Part shown: positions 1-10,254 of the stretch, one piece after another
How positions within the stretch are numbered: the first letter of the stretch is position 1
How the letters are laid out: each line of letters opens with the position of its first letter
DNA from: Armatimonadota bacterium
GTDB taxonomy: Bacteria > Armatimonadota > Fimbriimonadia > Fimbriimonadales > GBS-DC
Length of the DNA stretch: 54,641 nucleotides
Reading direction: 5' to 3'
NCBI GenBank assembly: GCA_037445735.1
Contig: JBBIJY010000020.1
Span: 1-54,641 of the forward strand
Program-made: the position numbers and the translations under genes
Notes under the pieces: model-generated
Seen by the model: only the letters and a program-made list of their open reading frames with translations
Told to the model about the DNA's origin: nothing
Database searches by the model: none

Positions 1-925
1 TCCTCAATTCCGCTGGAGTGGTGCTTGTCCACACATACTCATTCTCCCCAATCGCGGGCACACCCAGCGGGTCAGGCTGAACCTGAATAACCAAACCACC
101 ATACGCCTCAGCAGAGGCGCGCACCGCCAGCGCGCCACACTCCACCCAAGAACCCCTTAACGATATGTTACCTGTCATTTCTTCCATATAACTAACTCGC
201 TCGCTCCGACCAAAACTCACCCACTTCGCACTGTAATCCCGCCTGCTACTGCAATCCGCTGGGTCACACCTGGGATCACTGTCCTCATCTGGTCCAGTAC
301 AGTCCATGCATTCAGTATTGCAGCTACATGAGGCGCTCGCACTCGACGAAACAGAAGCTGAAACCAGCGAGGTTTGAACCGATGCGGAAGCCTCTGCCGA
401 CGCCGAACTCGAATTACAACAACCATCTTCTTGGTAGCTGTTGGGTCCGCATTCCGCGTAAGTAAGTGCAGATGATTCTGCCCGCACTTTCTGCACAAAA
501 TATAAAAAACCCAGATCTCGCTTCGGGGTATAGGTATAGCCCTCTATCTGTAAGTTCGGATAAGGCGAAGTGAACGAAAAGGTCAGCAACGCTTTCAAAG
601 AAGCCCCCACGCTAAAGCTTTGACCACTGCAGAAGAGTGGAAATCCCCCTAAAGTAAGATAACTGGCGTCGAGGATAACGGTTCGGCTTCCTTGGCTTCC
701 GCAAAGAAAATCCCAAAATGGGCTGCAATACTGATTCCCATAGGGACATTGAGTCAGGCTCGAGTCCCCACACCCAAGGGCACAGTCTCCCGTTATCTGT
801 AAAGTGGCTTTTGTCTGGCAGCGAACTTCTTGCAGGCGCTGTGCCCAGCCACTAACCTCACCCGCCAAGCAAACCCCAGCAATGCTAGCCACTGTAACCG
901 CCTTCCACAGCCACCAGCAAACCAT
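1..925 (-). CDS. Cys-rich secreted hypothetical protein, 3' end beyond window (absent from the ORF track)
   Basis: Manual translation gives an open frame from ATG 925 (GGAGAGG upstream) to the window edge: MVCWWLWKAVTVASIAGVCLAGEVSGWAQRLQEVRCQTKATLQITGDCALGCGDSSLTQCPYGNQYCSPFWDFLCG...GCCNSSSASAEASASV...SCSCNTECMDC...NEYVWTSTTPAELR. It has a signal-peptide-like N-terminus and many Cys. Confidence 0.8.
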   Translation of the reverse strand, partial: MVCWWLWKAVTVASIAGVCLAGEVSGWAQRLQEVRCQTKATLQITGDCALGCGDSSLTQCPYGNQYCSPFWDFLCGSQGSRTVILDASYLTLGGFPLFCSGQSFSVGASLKALLTFSFTSPYPNLQIEGYTYTPKRDLGFLYFVQKVRAESSALTYAECGPNSYQEDGCCNSSSASAEASASVQTSLVSASVSSSASASCSCNTECMDCTGPDEDSDPRCDPADCSSRRDYSAKWVSFGRSERVSYMEEMTGNISLRGSWVECGALAVRASAEAYGGLVIQVQPDPLGVPAIGENEYVWTSTTPAELR

Positions 926-1020
926 GGCAGGATATCCTCTCCATGAGTGGAAGTTACCAATAGCTGTTTTTTTTCACCCGTCCGTTCAATCCTCATTGCC
1001 TTCATTGCTCCTCCTCAGTT

Positions 1021-1162
1021 TCCGATTGGTCTGGAATGCCCGCTTCAGGACATTCACCTGCCACTGTGCGGTTTACCGCTTGGGATTAGACGAGGCGGAC
1101 GGCTCTTTAGAACGCTGATTCGAAGGCAGACTGGATGGTTGCAGCAATTTCTCAAACTCCTC
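1021..1162. repeat. 142-bp direct repeat 'tail', copy 1 (partner-gene 3' end, intergenic DNA and 33-bp core)
   Basis: Matches 2712-2853 except for a few substitutions in the 33-bp core. Encodes the 29-aa tail EEFEKLLQPSSLPSNQRSKEPSASSNPKR. Confidence 0.97.
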
Positions 1163-2212
1163 ACCCCATTTGGTTGACTGAACCCTGTCTTCATCCCATC
1201 TGCCTGTCCAGACCTGAGAACCACAACGACGATAGTCAATCACGCGCGTATCTTTCGGAATCTCTAACTTGAGAGGTAAATCCGTAGGCTGCGCACTCAG
1301 CAGTATCGCTTTTGATTGAATCTCCTTATCACCTTTAACTATCCACTCCACTTCCGCAGGAAACCATACACTCCCTATTCGCCTGTACTTTAGCACGCGC
1401 CAGGTATAAATGGCACCATCGTCATATCGAACTTCAAGTCGCGATAAGGCATCCTGATAACGCCGATCGAGGTGGAACCGAATATAGGGAGCCAGAAATG
1501 ACGCTTTATTTCCTGACTCGCGTGGCAATTCAAAAACCCACTCCTCTGGGCTGACCGCAACGAGCCGCCAGTCTTCTGGTTTGCGCCCATATAACCGAAA
1601 CGGCGATACACCCGCATAAACAACTAACAGCTCTGGTGTAAGTGCCCCAAAAGGACTCCCTAATCCCAGCACATCAGTATCAGCCTGCGCTATGGAAACA
1701 CCATTGATCTGCCCATTCGAGGTATCTCGATAAATCTCAATCACCAGGTCATTCTGTAAATACGACTCATTTGCTGGCAGATCGACAACCTTTGCGTCAT
1801 CTAAGTCGATACCTTGCTCCTGAATATAAACATAGATTCCATGAGGAGCGCGCTTAATCGTGTAGTACTCGCAAAGATCAAAAACCATTTTGGATATACT
1901 CTCATCAACAAGAGCTTTGCTCAACACATCTTCAATTGGAATCATTTCTTCGGGTGAATCACTTTTTTGCGATGTATCATCTGCTTGCTCTGCCAGATCG
2001 AGGACATAGCGCGTTATAAAATTATTGAGTTTTCTTATATCTTCTACAGAATACCTGACCTGGCTATTTAATACCCACTTAAAAGTCATAACAGCAGCAA
2101 CACGCTCGCGAGCGTCGTAATAGGAAGGTTGTGGAGCGGTGCGTTCAAAGGACACACCACTCCACAATACCACACTAATCGATAGGTTTAGTGACAGCAA
2201 ACCGATGAGCAT
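1073..2212 (-). CDS. Exported partner protein B2 (paralog of 2764-3840), function unknown
   Basis: ORF 1073..2245; likely start is ATG 2212 after GGAGG. Hydrophobic N-terminus. Shares PSYYDxRERVAAV, GVSPFRLYG, YQDALSRLEV, TWRVLKY and WFPxEVE with B1. Confidence 0.85.
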   Translation of the reverse strand: MLIGLLSLNLSISVVLWSGVSFERTAPQPSYYDARERVAAVMTFKWVLNSQVRYSVEDIRKLNNFITRYVLDLAEQADDTSQKSDSPEEMIPIEDVLSKALVDESISKMVFDLCEYYTIKRAPHGIYVYIQEQGIDLDDAKVVDLPANESYLQNDLVIEIYRDTSNGQINGVSIAQADTDVLGLGSPFGALTPELLVVYAGVSPFRLYGRKPEDWRLVAVSPEEWVFELPRESGNKASFLAPYIRFHLDRRYQDALSRLEVRYDDGAIYTWRVLKYRRIGSVWFPAEVEWIVKGDKEIQSKAILLSAQPTDLPLKLEIPKDTRVIDYRRCGSQVWTGRWDEDRVQSTKWGEEFEKLLQPSSLPSNQRSKEPSASSNPKR

Positions 2213-2238
2213 GATAGACCTCCACGCGAGATTTGGCT

Positions 2239-2697
2239 CTAACAAGTGTATGCTGGAAGGCTCTTAAATTCTGGCCGATTTGGTCGTTGGAACTGACCAC
2301 AATCACAGCGCCCATCATTGTGAAACACGCAGGGAGCCTTCTTGTCTACTCTGACCTTGACGAAATTTAGCGTGGCTTCGCATCGCGAGTTCGGCTGCGG
2401 CTGGCAAGTGCGGAGCCTCTCCTCCACAATTTCGCCTATATAGCACTCTCCGCCGCAGTCGCCTCCAACATTAGCACAGAATCTAGCTGAATAATGTCGC
2501 TTCTGGTGATCATCTGGTGGGATCTCTGTGCATATATGGTCATTGTACACCTTCCTCTCCGGTATTGCAGGTGAAGGTATCATCAGTGCTGCTGGATCAA
2601 AGTCATTCTCTTGACCCATCACCTGGCTCGGTACAATCGTCAACAGCGCGATCACGGATGCGCTCACTGCGCTCATCCACAGCATCTGCCGTCTCAT
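2239..2697 (-). CDS. Secreted 10-Cys mini-protein A2
   Basis: ATG 2697 after GGAGGAGG. Leader MRRQMLWMSAVSASVIALLTIVPSQVMG/QEN. Ten Cys in the mature part, with Cys as the last residue. Confidence 0.88.
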   Translation of the reverse strand: MRRQMLWMSAVSASVIALLTIVPSQVMGQENDFDPAALMIPSPAIPERKVYNDHICTEIPPDDHQKRHYSARFCANVGGDCGGECYIGEIVEERLRTCQPQPNSRCEATLNFVKVRVDKKAPCVFHNDGRCDCGQFQRPNRPEFKSLPAYTC

Positions 2698-2744
2698 CGT
2701 TCCGTTCCTCCTCCGATTGGTCTGAGATGTCCGCTTCAGGACAT
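2605..2744. repeat. 140-bp direct repeat 'leader', copy 1 (core, RBS and 31 N-terminal codons)
   Basis: Identical to 4191-4330 by base-by-base reading. Confidence 0.97.
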
Positions 2745-2853
2745 TCACCTGCCACTGTGCGGTTTACCGCTTGGGATTAGACGAGGCGGACGGCTCTTTA
2801 GAACGCTGATTCGAAGGCAGACTGGATGGTTGCAGCAATTTCTCAAACTCCTC
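2712..2853. repeat. 142-bp direct repeat 'tail', copy 2
   Basis: Matches 1021-1162; overlaps the leader repeat by 33 bp (2712-2744). Confidence 0.97.
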
Positions 2854-3840
2854 GCTCCATTCGGTCTGCTTGTATCCTTTAGACGCTCCGTCCCAAACCT
2901 GCCGCCCAAGATGACGCCAGTCGCGCACATGCGTCTTTTCAGGAATCTGGAGCTCAACCGATTTCGTTCGCTCCGATCGCACCAGTACTGCGCGTGCCCA
3001 CCCCGCATAACCACGGCCGCCCTGCACTGTGAACTCCACTTCGGATGGAAACCAGATGCCTTCAATCCGCTTGTATTTCAGCACTCGCCAGGTCCAAACT
3101 TCCCCATCTGGATAGTGAACCTCCAACCGTGAGAGGGCATCCTGATAGTGGCGATTAAGGTGGAGGCGCGTTTTAGGAGCGTTCTCCTGGGATTGGTGCG
3201 AAAGTTCAAAGAGCCACTCTTCAGGGCTGACCGAAATAAGACGCCAATTCTCCGGTTTGAACCCGTACAATCGGAAGGGCGAAACACCACCGTAAACGAC
3301 CAACCATTCTGGTGGTAAACTGCCAAAAGGGCTCCCCATACCCAGCACATCATCCTCACCCTTGGCGATGTCAACGCTGGCAATCCGTCCACTTGAGTAA
3401 TCACGGTGAACCGCAATGACCGTACCACCGACGAAGTAGGTTTCTGTGGAAAGGAGAAAGTCAGTTGCTTTTGCCTGTTCCAGATGGACTCCCTGCCCTT
3501 GAGTGCGAAGACATGTTCGCTGCGGTGTGCGCTCAATGGTGTAGTACGCGGACAGTTCGAAGACTGCGTTAGCAACCTCTTCAGCAATCGGCTTTCCCGC
3601 TTCAGGAGGAGCATCAGACGATTGAGCGCGCTGGAGTTTCATCTCGTTAAGCGCTCGAACAAGCTGGGGGGGAACCTTGACCTGCTGGGTCTCCTGCCAC
3701 TCGAAGGTCAGCACGGCAGCGACACGCTCGCGAGTGTCGTAATAGGAGGGCTTTGCGGGAGGTTGCGCGATAATCAAGCGCCCACACAGCGCTCCGATAG
3801 CCACCAGCCACAGGCTTAGTTTCCAGCGTCTTTTGATCAT
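2764..3840 (-). CDS. Exported partner protein B1, function unknown
   Basis: ORF 2764..3861; likely start is ATG 3840 after GGAGAG. Signal peptide MIKRRWKLSLWLVAIGALCGRLIIA/Q. Clear paralog of B2. Confidence 0.87.
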   Translation of the reverse strand: MIKRRWKLSLWLVAIGALCGRLIIAQPPAKPSYYDTRERVAAVLTFEWQETQQVKVPPQLVRALNEMKLQRAQSSDAPPEAGKPIAEEVANAVFELSAYYTIERTPQRTCLRTQGQGVHLEQAKATDFLLSTETYFVGGTVIAVHRDYSSGRIASVDIAKGEDDVLGMGSPFGSLPPEWLVVYGGVSPFRLYGFKPENWRLISVSPEEWLFELSHQSQENAPKTRLHLNRHYQDALSRLEVHYPDGEVWTWRVLKYKRIEGIWFPSEVEFTVQGGRGYAGWARAVLVRSERTKSVELQIPEKTHVRDWRHLGRQVWDGASKGYKQTEWSEEFEKLLQPSSLPSNQRSKEPSASSNPKR

Positions 3841-3854
3841 CTCAAACTCTCCAT

Positions 3855-4283
3855 CTAACATTGTCTTATGTCAATTGTGGTGATGAAGATGGGAAAGGGT
3901 ATAGGTCTTCGCCGACCGCAGTCACAACCTGTACCCGACGGATCACGCACACAGTCAGCTTCCCATATTATCCACACCAAAGCAGTTCCCCAAGTGTATG
4001 TGCAAGATGTGCCGGGGTTAGGATAGCACTCACGATAATCCTGAAGAACAATACCACGCATGCAGTGCCCAGTACAGCCAACAGGCGTTGAACGACACAC
4101 CTCATCCTGAAACGGTGAACCCGCTGGTACTGTTTTACATATGTGGTCAGGCAAGGTTATCGGTCTTGCTGGGCTTGGGCGACCTTGAATATTCTCTTGA
4201 CCCATCACCTGGCTCGGTACAATCGTCAACAGCGCGATCACGGATGCGCTCACTGCGCTCATCCACAGCATCTGCCGTCTCAT
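3855..4283 (-). CDS. Secreted 10-Cys mini-protein A1
   Basis: ATG 4283 after GGAGGAGG. Same 31-aa leader as A2, ten Cys with near-identical spacing, and a terminal Cys. Confidence 0.88.
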   Translation of the reverse strand: MRRQMLWMSAVSASVIALLTIVPSQVMGQENIQGRPSPARPITLPDHICKTVPAGSPFQDEVCRSTPVGCTGHCMRGIVLQDYRECYPNPGTSCTYTWGTALVWIIWEADCVRDPSGTGCDCGRRRPIPFPIFITTIDIRQC

Positions 4284-4330
4284 CGTTCCGTTCCTCCTCC
4301 GATTGGTCTGAGATGTCCGCTTCAGGACAT
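4191..4330. repeat. 140-bp direct repeat 'leader', copy 2
   Basis: Identical to 2605-2744. Confidence 0.97.
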
Positions 4331-4339
4331 CCACTATTA

Positions 4340-4877
4340 TTAACGACGCAGGACGCCCTTTTGTTGCCAGCGATTCCGAAAAAACGCCCGCCCTAACGCC
4401 CCAATCCGACCCAGACAACCCTGCACTGTACCCACCGACACGCCGAGCCGCTTCGCTATCTCCCCATAACTGTAGCCCGCTTCGTACAGCTCCGCCACCT
4501 GCCGCAAATACGCTGGCAGCCCTGCAAGAAACTCGTCTAATGCGATACGCTCCACCAGCGCCTCTTCATCGTTCACCACAGCCAACCATTCACCCCCCCG
4601 TTGCATCATCTAATATCAGTATCTCATGTCGCTTACATGCTCGTTTGCGCAGATCGATCGCCAGCGAACGCAACTTGTGGCAGCACCAGCCGAGCGCCTG
4701 CCGATATTCGGCTTCATCCAGCTCGCGCTCCCACGGCAAACAGCCGAACCGCTGCCAGTACGCCAGCAAAGTGTCCTGCACCAGGTCGTCCGCCTCATCG
4801 GGGCAGGGGGTATAGCCGTGCGCTCTTTGCACAAGCCACCTGCGCCACTCTTCTTCCGTTCGCATCGGAGACGACAT
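4340..4877 (-). pseudogene. ECF-type sigma-70 factor split by a frameshift at a G7 tract (possibly phase-variable)
   Basis: Region-2 half 4877..4590 (EADDLVQDTLL; RBS GGAGGG) stops right after ACG GGG GGG TGA. The region-4 HTH half (LPAYLRQVAELYEAGYSYGEIAKRLGVSVGTVQ) continues in the next frame to 4340. G6 or G9 would give a protein of about 178 aa. Confidence 0.85.
4342..4368 (-). promoter_or_regulatory. Candidate ECF-sigma promoter for the cassette operon
   Basis: Minus strand GGCAAC-N17-CGTT(AATA), matching the AAC(-35)/CGT(-10) ECF pattern, just upstream of the first cassette core. Confidence 0.5.
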
Positions 4878-4932
4878 CGTTGCCCTCCGGTGGGGAGGAT
4901 ACGACGGATGGAATGAAATTCCTGCTGGTTTC

Positions 4933-6192
4933 CTATCGCGCGGTGCCTGCTGGCGCGGCGGAGGGCACAAATGGCTCTATCAGGTGCAGAGCCAGCTCCT
5001 TCATAAAGAAGTGGCAGTCGGTCACGATGGGGAAGGTCTGGTGCGTGCCGCGATCGGTGAGTTTGATCACGGTGTCAGCGTCATTATCCACGCAGAACAC
5101 GCGCACGCGGGCAGGCAACATGTTGCCCGTTGCGACCGAGTGGAGCGTGGTGGCGACCATAATCGCGACGCCCACGCCCGGAATATGCGCCCGCATGGCG
5201 TCCTGCGCCTCCAGCACATCGGTAATCACTTCGGGCAGGGGTCCGTCGTCGCGGATGCTGCCCGCCAGCACGAAGGGCACATTGTGCCGAACGCATTCGT
5301 ACATCACGCCTTTAGTGAGGATGCCCTGCTCGACGGCGGCGCGGATGCCGCCCGCCAGCCGAATGCGGTTGATGGCGCGGATGTGGTGCTGGTGCCCGTG
5401 TTTGACGGGCGCGCCCAGCTCCAGCGCGACGCCGAGCGAGGTGCCGTATAATGCGGCTTCGATATCGTGGGCTGCCAGCGCGTTGCCCGCGAACAGCACA
5501 TCGATCCAGCCGTTGCGGATGAGCTGTTCCAGATAGATGCCGGCGCCCGTGTGGATGATGGCGGGACCGCCCACGAACAGCACCTTTTCGCCGCGCGCTT
5601 TGGCTTTGCGCACCTCGTCGGCGACGCCGCGCACGGCACGCTCCTTCGGCTTCTCGGAGGAGACATCGCTGCCCATGAAGGCGAAGATGGAGGTGGGGTC
5701 GCGTCGTTCGGGCGGCGTGACGCGGATGCCCTCGTGCCCCACCACGATCAGGTCGCCCCTGCGCACGCGCGCCATCGGCACGGTCGCCGCCCGCCAGTGT
5801 GAACCCTCCTGCCACACCCGAATGCCGCAATCCATCTCGATGTTCTCCACCGGTATCCAGCGGTGATGCACCCGCACGAAGGTCTCCAGATTGGTGGTGG
5901 AGTAGAAGTCTTCGGGGAAGACGCCATCTTTGGGCGCGGGTTCGAGGCGGGCATCCTCATGAGAGAAGTTCGCGCCGTGCTGCTGCACCTCGGTCAGCAC
6001 CGCCTCCAGCTGCTCTTCGGTGTCCGCCTGAACCAGAATCTCGAACTGGCTGGTCTCGTCGCGCGTGTGCCCGATTCGAGCGTGCTGAATCTCGTACCGC
6101 ACGCCCGCGTAGGACGAGAGAATGTCCAGCACCTTGGACAGCGTGAGCGAATCGATGACATGACCTTCCAGATGCACGATTTCCGATGGCAT
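4933..6192 (-). CDS. TIGR00300-family LOR/SDH-like protein (ornithine cyclodeaminase-type, like the ArgZ/AgrE C-terminus)
   Basis: Motifs LEGHVIDS, FYSTTN, VSSEKPK, GPAIIHTG, GNALAAHDIE, LAGSIRDDGPLP, LHSVATGNMLP and KLTDRG. Confidence 0.85.
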   Translation of the reverse strand: MPSEIVHLEGHVIDSLTLSKVLDILSSYAGVRYEIQHARIGHTRDETSQFEILVQADTEEQLEAVLTEVQQHGANFSHEDARLEPAPKDGVFPEDFYSTTNLETFVRVHHRWIPVENIEMDCGIRVWQEGSHWRAATVPMARVRRGDLIVVGHEGIRVTPPERRDPTSIFAFMGSDVSSEKPKERAVRGVADEVRKAKARGEKVLFVGGPAIIHTGAGIYLEQLIRNGWIDVLFAGNALAAHDIEAALYGTSLGVALELGAPVKHGHQHHIRAINRIRLAGGIRAAVEQGILTKGVMYECVRHNVPFVLAGSIRDDGPLPEVITDVLEAQDAMRAHIPGVGVAIMVATTLHSVATGNMLPARVRVFCVDNDADTVIKLTDRGTHQTFPIVTDCHFFMKELALHLIEPFVPSAAPAGTAR

Positions 6193-6239
6193 CGTCTCCT
6201 CCCGCATGATTTTACCTGACGGCTGGGTATAATGGGTGC

Positions 6240-6400
6240 GACCAGTTGCTGCCCTGTGCCGCCTGGTCCAAAACCAACCACAAAGGGGGTGATAGGTGAT
6301 GAATAACCGTCACCGTACTGTGGAGGGGATGGCATTTTAGCCACCCGTAGACGGGTTGGCGATGCCGACTGACCCGTGGGGCGGAAGGTTAGCGACGCCC
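6240..6400 (+). ncRNA. ssrS: Probable 6S RNA
   Basis: GGGTATAAT at 6225-6233. Rod-like end-to-end pairing: GTTGCTG/TAGCGAC, CCGCCT/GGGCGG, GGTC/GACC, CCAACC/GGTTGG. A-rich unpaired segment and a CACCCG-TAGA-CGGGTT hairpin. No covariance search was run. Confidence 0.55.
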
Positions 6401-6493
6401 GCTACGGGGTTCGGCGATGAATGCATCCTCTCCGAGAGAACGCGCCGGGTGTGAACCCGGCGCACCCAAACTCTCACCTATGGGGGACAGAAT

Positions 6494-7315
6494 ATGGCAA
6501 GACAGTTGCTGAGTCAGGTGATGCACTGGTGGAACATCGCGAAGGAGCTGTCGCCGAAGCAGGTGGAGCGCGAGCTGTTGACGCCGTTCCGTATCGCGCT
6601 GGTGGGGCAGCCGGATCGGGTGGAAGCGGTATGGCGCGTGCTGACCAGCGGCGCCAGCCCGCAAACGCTACAGATCGCATCGGAGTATGTTCAGCGGCTC
6701 AACGCGCCGCCCACCGAAGAGTTCGACTTCATCCTGGGCTGTGATGCGCTGGAGGTGCCGCAGGACGCGATCGAAGCCATCGTGGAGCATTTCCAGAGGA
6801 ACGAGTTCCCGCTGGTCGCGCTGGCGCGGGTGCTGCCCGGCACGCGCGAGATGGTGGTCAATCGCATCGTGGAGGAGGTCGCCTCGCTGAACGCGGGGCT
6901 GGCGATGTTGTCGGCGGTGCCGTCGGTGGTTCCGTTACTGGGTCTGCTCGCGCCGCCTGCCGCCGTCGCCGATATGGTGGTGCTGACCAAGAATCAGCTG
7001 CTGATGGTGTTGCGCGTGGCGGCGGCGTATGGTAAGGCGCCCGACTGGCGCAGGCGGTTGCCAGAGCTGGCGAGCGTGCTGGGCGCGGCGTTCGGCTGGC
7101 GAGCCGTCGCGCGGGAGCTGGTCGGCTTCGTGCCCGGCGGCGTCGGCATGGTCATCAAGGGCATGGTCGCCTATGCGGGCACGCTCACCGTCGGACGCGC
7201 CGCCGCATGGTACTACGCCACCGGGCGCGCGCCCGGCAGAGCCGAGCGCGAGCGGCTCTATCAGCAGGCGTGGGAGGAAGCCCGCGAGCGAAGCCAGGAC
7301 TGGAACCGACCGTGA
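6494..7315 (+). CDS. DUF697/YcjF-like protein
   Basis: ADMVVLTKNQLLMVLRVAAAYG...FGWRAVARELVGFVPGG...VAYAGT...GRAA pattern. Confidence 0.65.
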   Translation: MARQLLSQVMHWWNIAKELSPKQVERELLTPFRIALVGQPDRVEAVWRVLTSGASPQTLQIASEYVQRLNAPPTEEFDFILGCDALEVPQDAIEAIVEHFQRNEFPLVALARVLPGTREMVVNRIVEEVASLNAGLAMLSAVPSVVPLLGLLAPPAAVADMVVLTKNQLLMVLRVAAAYGKAPDWRRRLPELASVLGAAFGWRAVARELVGFVPGGVGMVIKGMVAYAGTLTVGRAAAWYYATGRAPGRAERERLYQQAWEEARERSQDWNRP

Positions 7316-10254
7316 GGGCGTGGGTGGTCGCGTGGCTGTTGAGCGGGCTGGGCGTGCTGACGCCTGCCGTCTGCCAGCAGGTGATGGTGCGCCCGGACCC
7401 CAATGCGCCCCTTGTCGCCCTCGAAATCTGGGTTCGGACAGGCAGCGCGAACGAGACCCGCGAGACTTCCGGCGCCGCGCACCTGCTGGAGCATCTTATC
7501 TTCAAAGGCACAGCCCGACACGCGCCGGGCGTGCTGGACGACACCATTGAATCGGCGGGCGGCATTCTGGAAGCCACCACCGAGCGCGACTGGACACGCT
7601 ATCGCGCGGCGGTGCTGCCCGACCGCTGGGAGCCGTGCCTGCGCATGCTGCTGCACCATCTGCTTCAGCCTGCTCTGCCCGAAGCCGAGCTGGAGCGCGA
7701 GCGCGCGATTATCTTGCAGGACGAATACGCGCTCCATCGGGCAGACCCGATTCGCACGGCACGCTACGCGCTCTATGAGAAGGCGTATGGCGAGCATCCC
7801 TACGCCCTGCCGCCGCTGGGCATTCCCGACACGCTGGCGAAGCTCACGCGCGAGCAGGTGCTGGCGTTCCATGCCCGCCACTATCGCCCCGAACGGATGG
7901 TGATTGTGGTGGTGGGGCGCGTGGAGCCAGCGCGCGTGCAGGCGGTGGTGCAGGAGGAAATCAGCAAGCCCCTCTCCCCCACTGGGGGAGAGGGTACGGG
8001 TGAGGGGGCTGTCTATCCTGTATCTGTGATCAACCCCTCACCCCAACCCTCTCCCCAGAGGGGAGAGGGAGCTAATCAGTCCCTCTCCCCCAGAAGGGGA
8101 GAGGGCGAACGAGCCTCTGAACCCCTCTCCCCCACTGGGGGAGAGGGTACGGGTGAGGGGGCTGATTTTCCTGCCGAGCTGATAGAACCCCTCACCCCAA
8201 CCCTCTCCCCAGAGGGGAGAGGGGGTTCAGATTCCCTCTCCCCCGCGTGCGGGGAAGAGGGTACGGGTGAGGGGGTAGAAGTTCAGCAGTCGGGCTGGCT
8301 GGCGCTGGGGGTCAAGGCGCCGCCCGCGAACCCGCCCGACGCGATGCTCGCAGCAGAGGTGGTGCGCCTCGCACTGGCGGAACCCTATCTCGGATTGCTC
8401 TATCAACCGCTGAATCACAGGCAGGATGCCCGTGCTACGGATACCCGCAACTGGCAGGGCGTGCCCTTTGTCTACCTGCAAAGCGAGTATATGCCCCGCC
8501 CGATTCAATCGCTGATGCTCTTCTTTTTCCAGCTGCCGCCCGATTCAGGCGATGAAGGCGTGCAGAAGCTGCGCGCGCACTGGCACGCATGCGTGCGCCA
8601 GATTGTTGAGGGCAGGGCGCGCTGGCAACTGGAGCGTGCAAAGGGATGGCTGATTGCCCGCCATCAGCAGGCGATGGCGAACCCGCTGGAGCGTGCGCGG
8701 CTGTACGCGCTTTACGCTACACTGGGGCTGCCCACCTTGCCCGATGAGTACCTTCCGCGCCTGCAATCGCTCTCTGTGGAGCAGATTGAGCAGGTGGCAC
8801 GCGGGATGCTGAACCCTTCCCTCACACTGGGGGAGAGGGAGTTCAAAAAGCCCCTCGCCCCCGCTGGGGGAGAGGGCGAACGAGTCTCTGAACCCCTCTC
8901 CCCCGCGTGCGGGGGAGAGGGTACGGGTGAGGGGGCACGGGGTGAGGAGACGGTCTATCGGCAGGTGCTGGCGAACGGCATGCGGGTGATTGCCCTGCGG
9001 CAGTCGGGCGCGAGGCAGGTGGTGATGCAGCTGCTGGTCGCTACAGGGCTGGACGCCGAGCGCGACTTCCCTGCAGGCACAGGCGAGCTGACCGCGCGCA
9101 TGCTGTTCACCGCCACCCACAACGAGACGCAGGCGACGATGGCGATGCGAATCGCACGCTCTGGCGGCGCACTGACGCTGAGCTGGGAGCCTGTGGGCGT
9201 GCGCATTCTTGCCGTCGCCGAGCCAGCCGCGCTGGAGAATGTGCTATCCCTGTTGCGGGAGGGGCTGACTCGCGCGGTGTTCGAGCCAGAAAGCTTGCGC
9301 CACGCGCTGCAGCTCGCCATTGCCGAACGCCAGCGCACCGACGGCACGCACGAGTTCTATCTCTATGACCAGCTGTTGCGCCAGCTGAACGGCGCGAGCG
9401 GTCTGTACGCGACCGCTGAGCAGCTCCAGCGCGTGCGACTGGAGCATATTCGCGCCTTCTATCGCCTTTATTACCGCCCTGAACGGTTCGTGTTTGTGAT
9501 TGCAGGCGATCTGCCCGTGGAGCGCCTGACGGAGCTGGTACAGCGGTACTTCGGCACGCTGGAGGGGACTCCCTCACCCCCTGCCCCCTCTCCCACGCTG
9601 TGGGAGAGGGGGTTCAGAAAGCCCCTCTCCCCCGCTGGGGGAGAGGGCGAACGAGTCTCTGAACCCCTCTCCCCCGCACGCGGGGGAGAGGGTACGGGTG
9701 AGAGGGCGTTTTATCCTGCTCCCCTGCACGCGGGTGCGAGAGTAGCAGTTGCTGCCTGTGGGGGCGGGGCGACGCTCTATCTGGGGTTCGGGCTGCGCGT
9801 GCAGGTGCGCACGCCTGCCGACTATGCCGTGCTGATGGTGTTGCACGCGCTGCTGTGCGAGGGCAAAGGCTCCGCGCTCTTTCAGCAGATGCGTCAGGCG
9901 CGGGGCGTCGGCTATGCGTTCGGCGGCGCGCCCCTCATGTGGCATGGCGACGGGCTGCTGCTGGGCTTCCTGCAGGTGGGCGCGAGCCGTGCCAGCCAGC
10001 AGCAAGAGCTGTTGAACGCGCTGCAGACGCTGGCGACGCTCAAAGAGATCGACCCGAACGCCTTTCGGCGGGCGGTCGCACTGGCGGAGGGGCGCTGGCG
10101 GCTTGCCCGCCTCGATATCGTTGAGCGCACGCGCCGACTCGCCCTCGCTGAAGTTAGCGGGGTCGGGTATCATGCGGAGGAGCAGCTGCCCGACTGGCTC
10201 CAGAAACTGGATCGGGCAAGCGTGCTGACCGACGCCTCGCAGGGCGCACCGTGA
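7312..10254 (+). CDS. M16 (pitrilysin) family zinc peptidase, two fused units, with in-frame palindromic repeat inserts
   Basis: GAAHLLEHLIFKG (HxxEH) and HYRPERMVIVVVG. The second unit (LANGMRV...YYRPERFVFVIAGD) lacks HxxEH. GTG 7312 overlaps the upstream stop. Confidence 0.9.
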   Translation: MRAWVVAWLLSGLGVLTPAVCQQVMVRPDPNAPLVALEIWVRTGSANETRETSGAAHLLEHLIFKGTARHAPGVLDDTIESAGGILEATTERDWTRYRAAVLPDRWEPCLRMLLHHLLQPALPEAELERERAIILQDEYALHRADPIRTARYALYEKAYGEHPYALPPLGIPDTLAKLTREQVLAFHARHYRPERMVIVVVGRVEPARVQAVVQEEISKPLSPTGGEGTGEGAVYPVSVINPSPQPSPQRGEGANQSLSPRRGEGERASEPLSPTGGEGTGEGADFPAELIEPLTPTLSPEGRGGSDSLSPACGEEGTGEGVEVQQSGWLALGVKAPPANPPDAMLAAEVVRLALAEPYLGLLYQPLNHRQDARATDTRNWQGVPFVYLQSEYMPRPIQSLMLFFFQLPPDSGDEGVQKLRAHWHACVRQIVEGRARWQLERAKGWLIARHQQAMANPLERARLYALYATLGLPTLPDEYLPRLQSLSVEQIEQVARGMLNPSLTLGEREFKKPLAPAGGEGERVSEPLSPACGGEGTGEGARGEETVYRQVLANGMRVIALRQSGARQVVMQLLVATGLDAERDFPAGTGELTARMLFTATHNETQATMAMRIARSGGALTLSWEPVGVRILAVAEPAALENVLSLLREGLTRAVFEPESLRHALQLAIAERQRTDGTHEFYLYDQLLRQLNGASGLYATAEQLQRVRLEHIRAFYRLYYRPERFVFVIAGDLPVERLTELVQRYFGTLEGTPSPPAPSPTLWERGFRKPLSPAGGEGERVSEPLSPARGGEGTGERAFYPAPLHAGARVAVAACGGGATLYLGFGLRVQVRTPADYAVLMVLHALLCEGKGSALFQQMRQARGVGYAFGGAPLMWHGDGLLLGFLQVGASRASQQQELLNALQTLATLKEIDPNAFRRAVALAEGRWRLARLDIVERTRRLALAEVSGVGYHAEEQLPDWLQKLDRASVLTDASQGAP
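7966..8276. repeat. Palindromic CCCTCTCCCC..GGGGAGAGGG repeat cluster, in frame in the M16 peptidase
   Basis: Several hairpins translated as PLSPTGGEGTGEG, PSPQPSPQRGEG and PLTPTLSPEGRG. Confidence 0.92.
8812..8936. repeat. Palindromic repeat cluster, in frame in the M16 peptidase
   Basis: Encodes KPLAPAGGEGERVSEPLSPACGGEGTGEG; near-identical to 9619-9707 and intergenic 12049-12136. Confidence 0.92.
9571..9707. repeat. Palindromic repeat cluster, in frame in the M16 peptidase
   Basis: Encodes PSPPAPSPTLWERGFRKPLSPAGGEGERVSEPLSPARGGEGTGE. Confidence 0.92.

Follow-up and report, generated by a model that had tools for sequence, protein, structure and literature searches.

Tandem A-B cassettes with identical ends and diverged interiors behind an ECF sigma gene in Armatimonadota, probably joined by homology-driven exchange at short repeats

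We examined a stretch of 54,641 nucleotides (nt), hereafter the window, which is contig JBBIJY010000020.1 (C20) of an Armatimonadota assembly (GCA_037445735.1, labelled G000; 2.78 Mb in 59 contigs, genome guanine-plus-cytosine (GC) content 0.62). On its minus strand, a gene for an extracytoplasmic function (ECF) sigma factor is followed by two tandem cassettes of two genes each, A and B, and by a gene that we call C, in the order ECF sigma, core3, A1-B1, core2, A2-B2, core1, gene C, where the cores are three copies of a 33-nt repeat and A1-B1 and A2-B2 represent two cassette types (type 1 and type 2, respectively). The two cassettes have identical ends around old and strongly diverged interiors, and related genomes carry the same locus with one cassette or none, which makes it a recombination hotspot. 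We consider it probable that this arrangement came about through homology-driven exchange at short repeats, with homogenised ends and without a dedicated site-specific system. The region is a hypervariable island of Armatimonadota (Fimbriimonadales-like) between a conserved gene of 424 amino acids (aa) and a pilus/secretin cluster, with a variable number of cassettes behind the ECF sigma gene. The island is compositionally foreign, with a GC content of 0.46-0.56 and a GC content at third codon positions (GC3) of 0.45-0.57, compared with a GC3 of 0.83 in the neighbouring gene and the GC content of the genome given above.

The window was compared with 29 genomes of its family, a phylum sample of 401 genomes and a metagenomic set of 24 loci encoding B relatives (L-numbers), with 2 contigs carrying more than one cassette. 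Among the genomes, G002 is from the same genus and near-conspecific, G003 is a third genome of the genus and G009 is a relative from another genus.

Identical cassette ends around diverged interiors

The repeats, the threefold core and the minus-strand strings quoted for it in an earlier sequence-only reading of the window proved correct. Positions 2605-2744 and 4191-4330 show 0/140 mismatches, a match that extends to 144 nt with 1 mismatch, and positions 1021-1162 and 2712-2853 show 3/142 mismatches (at 1034, 1035 and 1039), with 1040-1162 identical to 2731-2853 and the repeat extending to 154 nt at 96% identity. These two repeats overlap in 33 nt, and the overlap is present in three copies, all direct repeats on the minus strand: core1 (1021-1053), core2 (2712-2744) and core3 (4298-4330). 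The shared core string, ATGTCCTGAAGCGG, occurs at the three core positions only, and the search for further cores that had been proposed returned none elsewhere in the 59 contigs of G000. The leader block (copy 1 at 4191-4330, copy 2 at 2605-2744, minus strand) comprises the core, a Shine-Dalgarno sequence and the first 31 codons of A1 or A2, respectively, with the signal peptide (MRRQ...VMGQEN in A1). The tail block (copy 1 at 2745-2853, identical to copy 2 at 1054-1162, minus strand) comprises the last 29 codons of B1 or B2, the stop codon and a spacer. Each cassette unit consists of two open reading frames (ORFs) with a Shine-Dalgarno sequence of their own, A1 (3855-4283) and B1 (2764-3840) in type 1 and A2 (2239-2697) and B2 (1073-2212) in type 2, all on the minus strand.

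When the aligned cassettes were compared in 50-nt sliding windows, identity dropped at the leader edge from 1.00 through 0.74 to 0.36-0.24, ranged from 0.22 to 0.76 in the interior, and rose at the tail edge from 0.46-0.56 through 0.88 to 1.00. The profile is stepwise at the repeat edges and not gradual, as expected from the sequence-only reading. The longest identical run is 140 columns; shuffling the columns of this alignment 5000 times gave a maximum of 29 and a mean of 12.3.

Read depth was taken from Logan contigs of run X1, which is the probable source sample, and therefore this support is not independent. There, the leader block stands alone as a 140-nt piece with a depth of 34.1 and the tail block has a depth of ~35.1, compared with 13.4 on the gene C side, 21.9 for A2-B2, 15.8 for A1-B1 and 14.3 on the sigma side. 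Since the shared blocks have ~2x depth and each cassette ~1x, both cassettes are present about once per genome and the blocks about twice, a pattern that supports a true tandem and excludes a merge of two single-cassette strains.

Old cassette types with recently shared ends

In a maximum-likelihood tree of 28 B proteins, the two B genes of the window fall into different clades. The type-1 clade (support 96/93) holds B1 of G000, L032, the second L034 gene, P0003 and P0004, and the type-2 clade (support 100/99) holds B2 of G000, B2 of G009, the first L034 gene, L035 and 5 others, so that each clade includes proteins of other lineages. Judging from this tree, both cassette types are much older than the G000 genome and are no recent duplicate pair.

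Within G000, the leader copies show 0/140 and the tail copies 0/109 differences. Compared with G009, the leader has 9 mismatches and 3 gap columns in 143 and the tail 11/109 mismatches, a divergence of ~10% that matches that of the A2 (31/366) and B2 (118/1082) interiors. Since the ends are identical in G000 yet ~10% removed from G009, they were shared or homogenised long after the split from G009, and from these counts their identity appears to be the result of recent homologous exchange or gene conversion. The same comparison bears out the argument that no simple old duplication could have left such ends, since B1 and B2 belong to separate old clades. In a sliding comparison of protein identity, B1 was closer to B2 than to its type-1 relatives in the last window (the tail) only, and no other conversion tract was found in the protein.

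Alleles with one cassette and with none

On one contig of G009 the order is sigma-coreU-A2-B2-coreD-C, with a single cassette between two cores. This locus is 95.0% identical to the window in sigma, 91.6% in the leader, 91.5% in the A2 interior, 89.1% in the B2 interior and 89.9% in the tail, whereas the housekeeping flanks of the window find their matches on other contigs of G009, at an identity of only 74-84%. A module at 89-95% compared with housekeeping flanks at 74-84% points to transfer between genera, and the module has probably moved in this way. The single-cassette form is also found on an X2 contig, where 2708 is joined to 4292 and 1583 nt are skipped. The single-cassette allele whose existence the sequence-only reading had wished to see checked is thus real.

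G002 has an empty syntenic site with one core and no cassette. Its flanks are 95-97% identical to the window (left 97%, with the same 424-aa gene), and on the right it matches G000 contig C23, the continuation of gene C, at 93%; since both flanks are syntenic with G000, the G002 site is orthologous. On one contig, G002 passes from sigma-side sequence into a core in which the right half and the next 27 nt are of the gene-C type, and then into a different gene of 377 aa.

The core pattern was found in 3/29 family genomes, at this locus only, in 3, 2 and 1 copies (that is, cassettes plus one), and a control search with the reversed pattern gave 0 matches. The six cores are made up of two left halves (sigma-side and B-tail-side) and two right halves (A-leader and C-type), and all four combinations are present: core3 has the sigma-side left half and the A-leader right half, core1 the B-tail left half and the gene-C-type right half, core2 the B-tail and A-leader halves, and the G002 core the sigma-side and C-type halves. 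The middle core is therefore a hybrid of the outer two, as claimed earlier, and since all four half-combinations exist, core2 and the G002 core are the reciprocal products that exchange between parental cores would give, with an exchange interval of ATGTCCTGAAGCGG plus up to four more bases. The crossover that had been placed inside the core gains from the reciprocal hybrid core at the empty G002 site, but a 33-nt core leaves the identity of a 107-nt leader and a ~110-nt tail unexplained, and these require homologous exchange or gene conversion over longer blocks.

Each core contains an 8-bp hairpin with the loop TGAAGC, which spans 1034-1055 at core1 and 4311-4332 at core3. Between core3 and core1 one stem pair is altered on both sides, from G-C to A-U, and in the hybrid core2 A faces C at this pair, which breaks it, and the predicted minimum-free-energy fold no longer contains the hairpin. 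The hairpin is likewise lost from the predicted fold of the G002 core. Fold z-scores of the hairpin in 71-91-nt contexts were not significant (-1.38 to +0.65). A cruder best-hairpin test, the script for which picked a different pairing for core3, found 0/20 shuffles equally stable in 9/17 upstream regions, 3 of these sharing one hairpin. A hairpin of varying sequence, placed after an AT-rich box, stands upstream of most A genes of the family. We tentatively regard the hairpin before the A genes as a stem-loop in the 5′ untranslated region (UTR), and the core might be a piece of the A leader that also came to stand before gene C. A scan of 1-5200 returned no Rfam family at E ≤ 1, and a scan of 700-5100 returned 0 sigma-70 promoter sites and 6 terminator-like sites against 3.8 expected, which is not above the shuffled level.

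At the orthologous site of G003 (L056, 2864-4055) the sigma gene is only 46% identical, B is absent, and the gene after sigma encodes another cysteine-rich secreted protein, the signal peptide of which is similar. Contig C64 of G009 (L014) contains a second, larger duplication around the module (3-2359 and 5248-8834), with genes for a C-like and a 336-aa protein upstream and gene C and genes for a 409-aa and a 341-aa protein downstream. Identity is 84% between the 336-aa and 341-aa proteins and 52% between the two C-like proteins.

The same pattern in metagenomic arrays

Locus L034 carries a type-2 cassette, then a type-1 cassette and, downstream of both, the sigma gene. The leaders of this array are 98% identical over 235 nt and its tails 96% over 82 nt, the tail block takes in the first 32 nt of the sigma gene, and the junctions lie ~100 nt upstream of the homologous hairpin. 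With a junction inside the start of the sigma gene, the hairpin core does not serve generally as a cassette attachment site. In L048 the two blocks are 99% identical over 117 nt and 100% over 92 nt (part of L048 recurs in L049 at 100%), and both L034 and L048 show the stepwise identity profile. All three observed contigs with two or more B genes (the window, L034 and L048) have near-identical ends and interiors of 20-75% identity. As the G000 and L034 arrays differ in junction, order and sigma position, arrays were built at least twice independently. The same edges are seen between single-cassette loci of the two types, L032 (type 1) and L035 (type 2), which come from related lineages and where the leaders are 83.5% identical, the tail and downstream gene 88.9%, and the interiors unalignable; homology stops a few codons past the signal peptide and resumes ~23-29 codons before the B stop, as in the window.

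Proposed mechanism and alternatives

In the mechanism that we favour, the parental state would be a single cassette between two cores, as in G009. Unequal exchange inside the 33-nt hairpin-bearing repeat would join a second cassette and create the hybrid core2, and the reciprocal exchange would delete a cassette and leave an empty site as in G002. The exchange could be general recombination or replication slippage between short direct repeats; its enzymology (RecA or slippage) and the order of events are what we infer, whereas the junctions, the alleles with two, one and no cassettes and the relative ages of the parts were observed directly. Leader and tail could have become identical because the exchanging alleles shared one locus backbone, or through gene conversion of the ends at a later time. 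Since different old types sit on an identical backbone, exchange between two alleles is simplest, and the simplest single event would be unequal exchange between two locus alleles of one population; duplication followed by replacement of one interior would be an alternative route to the same outcome. The highly diverged interiors would halt heteroduplex extension and thereby produce the sharp edges, and the identical 140-250-nt blocks may now ease the loss, gain or swap of cassettes.

Several points weigh against this mechanism. All genomes compared are draft metagenome-derived assemblies, and no listed Logan piece spans the 249-nt middle block; since none bridges the middle junction, the order of the cassettes comes from the assembled contig only. 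The A2-B2 piece (1133-2634) has a depth 1.5 times that of the flanks (21.9 vs 13.4-14.3), which may point to a further type-2 cassette in some of the sampled genomes, or may be noise. The left arm of the G002 core has extra changes, with AATATCC where GGATGTCC would stand, so that this deletion does not mirror core2 exactly. The two parental core types match perfectly over no more than 13-16 nt at a stretch, which is short for RecA-mediated exchange, and slippage or another enzyme would be needed. The hairpin arms with their 6-nt spacer resemble a recombinase core site, in outline only. Finally, the identity of the ends may have come with the joining event or from later conversion, as the data fit both.

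A rather unlikely but serious alternative is that the tandem is old and arose in situ by one ancient duplication, its ends being kept alike by conversion and the single and empty alleles being later deletions. Sharp islands of identity are expected from conversion limited by diverged interiors, and deletion between 140-nt direct repeats would be easy and would yield alleles such as L032 and L035/G009 with the same ends. However, G000 and L034 are opposite in cassette order and sigma side and have different junctions (core vs sigma 5′ fragment), so the two arrays cannot both descend from a founding duplication and at least one was assembled from already diverged cassettes. The greater identity of the module than of the flanks (89-95% vs 74-84%) to another genus also points to transfer, and the GC3 of B1 (0.57) differs from that of B2 (0.45).

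A site-specific system is improbable. It would have the 8-bp arms and the TGAAGC spacer cut by host tyrosine recombinases (e.g., the Xer pair) in an integrase-less, integron-like manner, with A-B cassettes excising as circles and integrating at cores, and if true it would shuffle hypervariable pairs of secreted and LolA-like proteins within the population. The number of cores (cassettes plus one in three genomes) would fit such a system, as would the presence of both reciprocal hybrid cores with an exchange interval that takes in the spacer, the inverted arms around a non-palindromic spacer, and the two tyrosine recombinases of the genome. However, the linked recombinase that the sequence-only reading had in mind was not found on the 54.6-kb contig: G000 has 2 Phage_integrase (PF00589) matches, on C21 and C9 and none on C20, and no Resolvase match. 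The core has no further sites in the genome or in 26 other family genomes and 0 exact matches in metagenome contigs, and the L034 junctions lie ~100 nt upstream of the homologous hairpin and inside the sigma gene. The varying hairpin before most A genes fits a 5′-UTR element, and exchange driven by homology is required in any case for the identical blocks of 107-110 nt outside the core.

That two single-cassette strains were stitched together through their shared ends during assembly is hardly credible, even for a metagenome-derived draft with no listed Logan piece across the 249-nt middle block, because the flanks (13.4-14.3) are not as deep as the two cassettes added together (15.8 and 21.9) with the shared blocks at 34-35, the 13-16 nt that core2 has in common with either parental core are insufficient for a false link in the assembly graph at common k-mer sizes, and independent contigs from other samples have the same architecture.

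Comparison with known systems

The recombination processes that homology-driven exchange calls on are textbook and the mechanism is ordinary; what is new is the module, its restriction to a single Armatimonadota family in the searches made, and the survival of the locus in its parental, duplicated and deleted forms. In general bacterial genetics, unequal exchange or slippage between short direct repeats is a familiar source of tandem duplications and deletions. The locus resembles such cases in having a unit flanked by direct repeats, reciprocal hybrid junctions and, here, a hairpin in the repeat, and the parental state (G009), the duplication junction (core2) and the deletion junction (G002, with extra changes in its left arm) were all found. 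Unlike in the usual short-repeat duplication, the joined units are not identical copies but ~50% diverged in protein, so the exchange either brought together different alleles or paralogues or was followed by replacement of one interior. The locus is a clean natural example, with three states in related genomes and both reciprocal junctions readable, which is rare outside laboratory systems.

Concerted evolution by gene conversion is known from, for example, rRNA operons and release-factor genes, and the Helicobacter bab genes combine conserved ends with a variable middle. As in concerted evolution, there are blocks that are closer between paralogues in a genome than between orthologues, and the tract edges are sharp; the end blocks are closer within G000 than to G009, and the rest of the paralogues is older than the species split. 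Unlike in concerted evolution of the rRNA type, homogenisation is confined to the leader and 3′ tail of a two-gene unit, and it recurs across the three arrays.

Integron arrays are similar in that their units are separated by a structured repeat and vary in number, and circular intermediates had been predicted for this locus in the sequence-only reading. Unlike integrons, the array has no integrase next to it, and its units are not single promoterless ORFs but hold two genes with their own ribosome sites. Moreover, the repeat here is a 22-nt hairpin that appears to lie inside a 5′ UTR, and the junctions elsewhere in the family are not at the hairpin.

Variable-module arrays include the orphan toxin-immunity modules of contact-dependent inhibition (CDI) and Rhs systems and the mycoplasma vsp/vsa/vpma surface genes with a shared leader. 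The locus shares with them a conserved 5′ segment with a signal peptide, a hypervariable rest, co-varying neighbours and allele replacement at the locus. In contrast to these arrays, it has no toxin/immunity signature and no adjacent recombinase (none was found on the contig), and the three cores are direct rather than inverted repeats. As both cassette copies keep the full leader, neither is silent, unlike in vsp/vsa/vpma.

The sigma-E/RseA/RseB system of Escherichia coli is an ECF sigma module with a LolA-like periplasmic partner. An ECF sigma gene likewise adjoins a protein with a LolA/RseB-like fold here, and structures 2p4b and 2v43 are among the Foldseek matches of B. Unlike in that system, there is no recognisable anti-sigma factor, B is membrane-anchored and preceded by the secreted 10-cysteine protein A, and the sigma gene, although both region 2 and region 4 were found, is frameshifted in the window. 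In the result listings of a full-text literature search, no account of a sigma-A-B module was found.

The A and B proteins

A1 (142 aa) and A2 (152 aa) are secreted proteins with ten conserved cysteines, and the A2 protein is 89% identical to its G009 orthologue. The A1 model is an all-beta domain with a predicted local distance difference test (pLDDT) score of 83.5, above 90 in the mature part. A matched no Pfam or NCBIfam family, and its fold matched no solved structure, with a best Foldseek match in the PDB at E = 0.25 and a best VIA-align Z of 3.5 over 48,161 chains. A protein atlas search with A gave no usable match, and a profile of the A family found 40 cluster representatives at E ≤ 0.001 among 1.84 billion.

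B1 (358 aa) has an N-terminal membrane helix and a LolA/LolB/RseB-like domain, and B2 (379 aa), which is 86% identical to its G009 orthologue, is likewise LolA-like and membrane-anchored. The B model (pLDDT 86.2) matched 29 PDB chains at E ≤ 0.001 in Foldseek (best E = 1.1e-07), with LolA3, LolB, LolA and a lipoprotein-sorting domain as the top folds and RseB more weakly, at target-normalised template modelling (TM) scores of 0.4-0.58. Based on this model, B is predicted to have a LolA/LolB/RseB-type fold. B1 matched no Pfam family at E ≤ 0.1 and no NCBIfam family at E ≤ 0.01, and B2, for which a Pfam scan only was run, gave two sub-threshold matches, neither of them LolA-related.

The B family had 27 members at E ≤ 1e-5 in 5.8 billion clusters, 2 of them labelled Fimbriimonadales or Armatimonadota. 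B is present in 9/29 genomes of the window's family and in 2/401 phylum-wide genomes, both in that family. A scan of species-representative genomes with B1 gave L031 as its sole match, at 26%, which was unrelated and was dropped. G000 itself has another four, diverged B genes; an A-like gene stands before three of them, and one of these modules also includes a sigma gene. An ECF sigma gene stands beside A-B modules in the window, G009, G000 C44, G002 C13, L032/L033, L034 and L040-L042. This distribution suggests an envelope module under sigma control in which A and B vary together as a pair, and A and B may act as a cognate pair.

The locus defines a small unannotated module of an ECF sigma factor, a secreted 10-cysteine protein and a LolA/RseB-like membrane protein, the interior of which is exchanged as one piece, with the signal peptide and the C-terminal tail staying fixed. 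Surface loci under diversifying selection typically combine, as this one does, a conserved export signal with mature parts that are hypervariable and neighbours that vary in concert, and the module offers a way into the envelope biology of a phylum of which very few members are in culture.

Decay of the island and neighbouring features

The ECF-type sigma gene of the window (4340-4970, minus strand) lies in two frames, with region 2 in the ORF at 4590-4970 and region 4 in the ORF at 4340-4609, and matches Pfam Sigma70_r2 (E = 9.1e-07) and Sigma70_r4_2 (E = 8e-09) in these separate ORFs. The frame is broken at a C7 run near 4584-4590, where the X2 contig (at 4596) and G009 have one base fewer than the window, and the G009 orthologue is a single frame that matches TIGR02937 at 53.2 bits against a cut-off of 42.9. 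The sigma gene of G002 is without 372 nt (window 4532-4903), and the gene is thus broken in both genus genomes that carry it, G000 and G002. The B gene of the second L034 cassette is split into two overlapping frames (4466-5979), and an in-frame stop interrupts the A gene of L035 (54-533) at a position that is glycine in relatives; both cases reflect either decay of the copy or an error in sequencing. With the sigma frameshift, the 372-nt loss in G002 and the stops or fragments in several relatives, the island decays quickly.

The 5′ part of gene C (2-925, minus strand) encodes a cysteine-rich secreted protein and runs off the contig. Its 3′ part stands at the end of contig C23, after a gap of ~76 codons, and is followed by a 377-like gene and the pilus/secretin cluster. 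The window part of gene C is 94% identical to G009 and the C23 part only ~38%, which suggests another recombination breakpoint inside the gene. G009 and the X2 contig are without 457 nt at window 471-927, so that the signal-peptide end of gene C is gone and the rest of the gene is out of frame with an upstream ATG at 1005.

Beyond the island, the plus-strand ORF at 7207-10254 matches a dispersed repeat at 7950-8300, 8800-8950 and 9550-9750. This repeat gives 120-206 blastn matches per 50-nt bin, on 44/59 G000 contigs, and has dozens of copies in G002. The ORF stays open through the repeat, which is read as ...LSPxGGEGxGEGA... segments.

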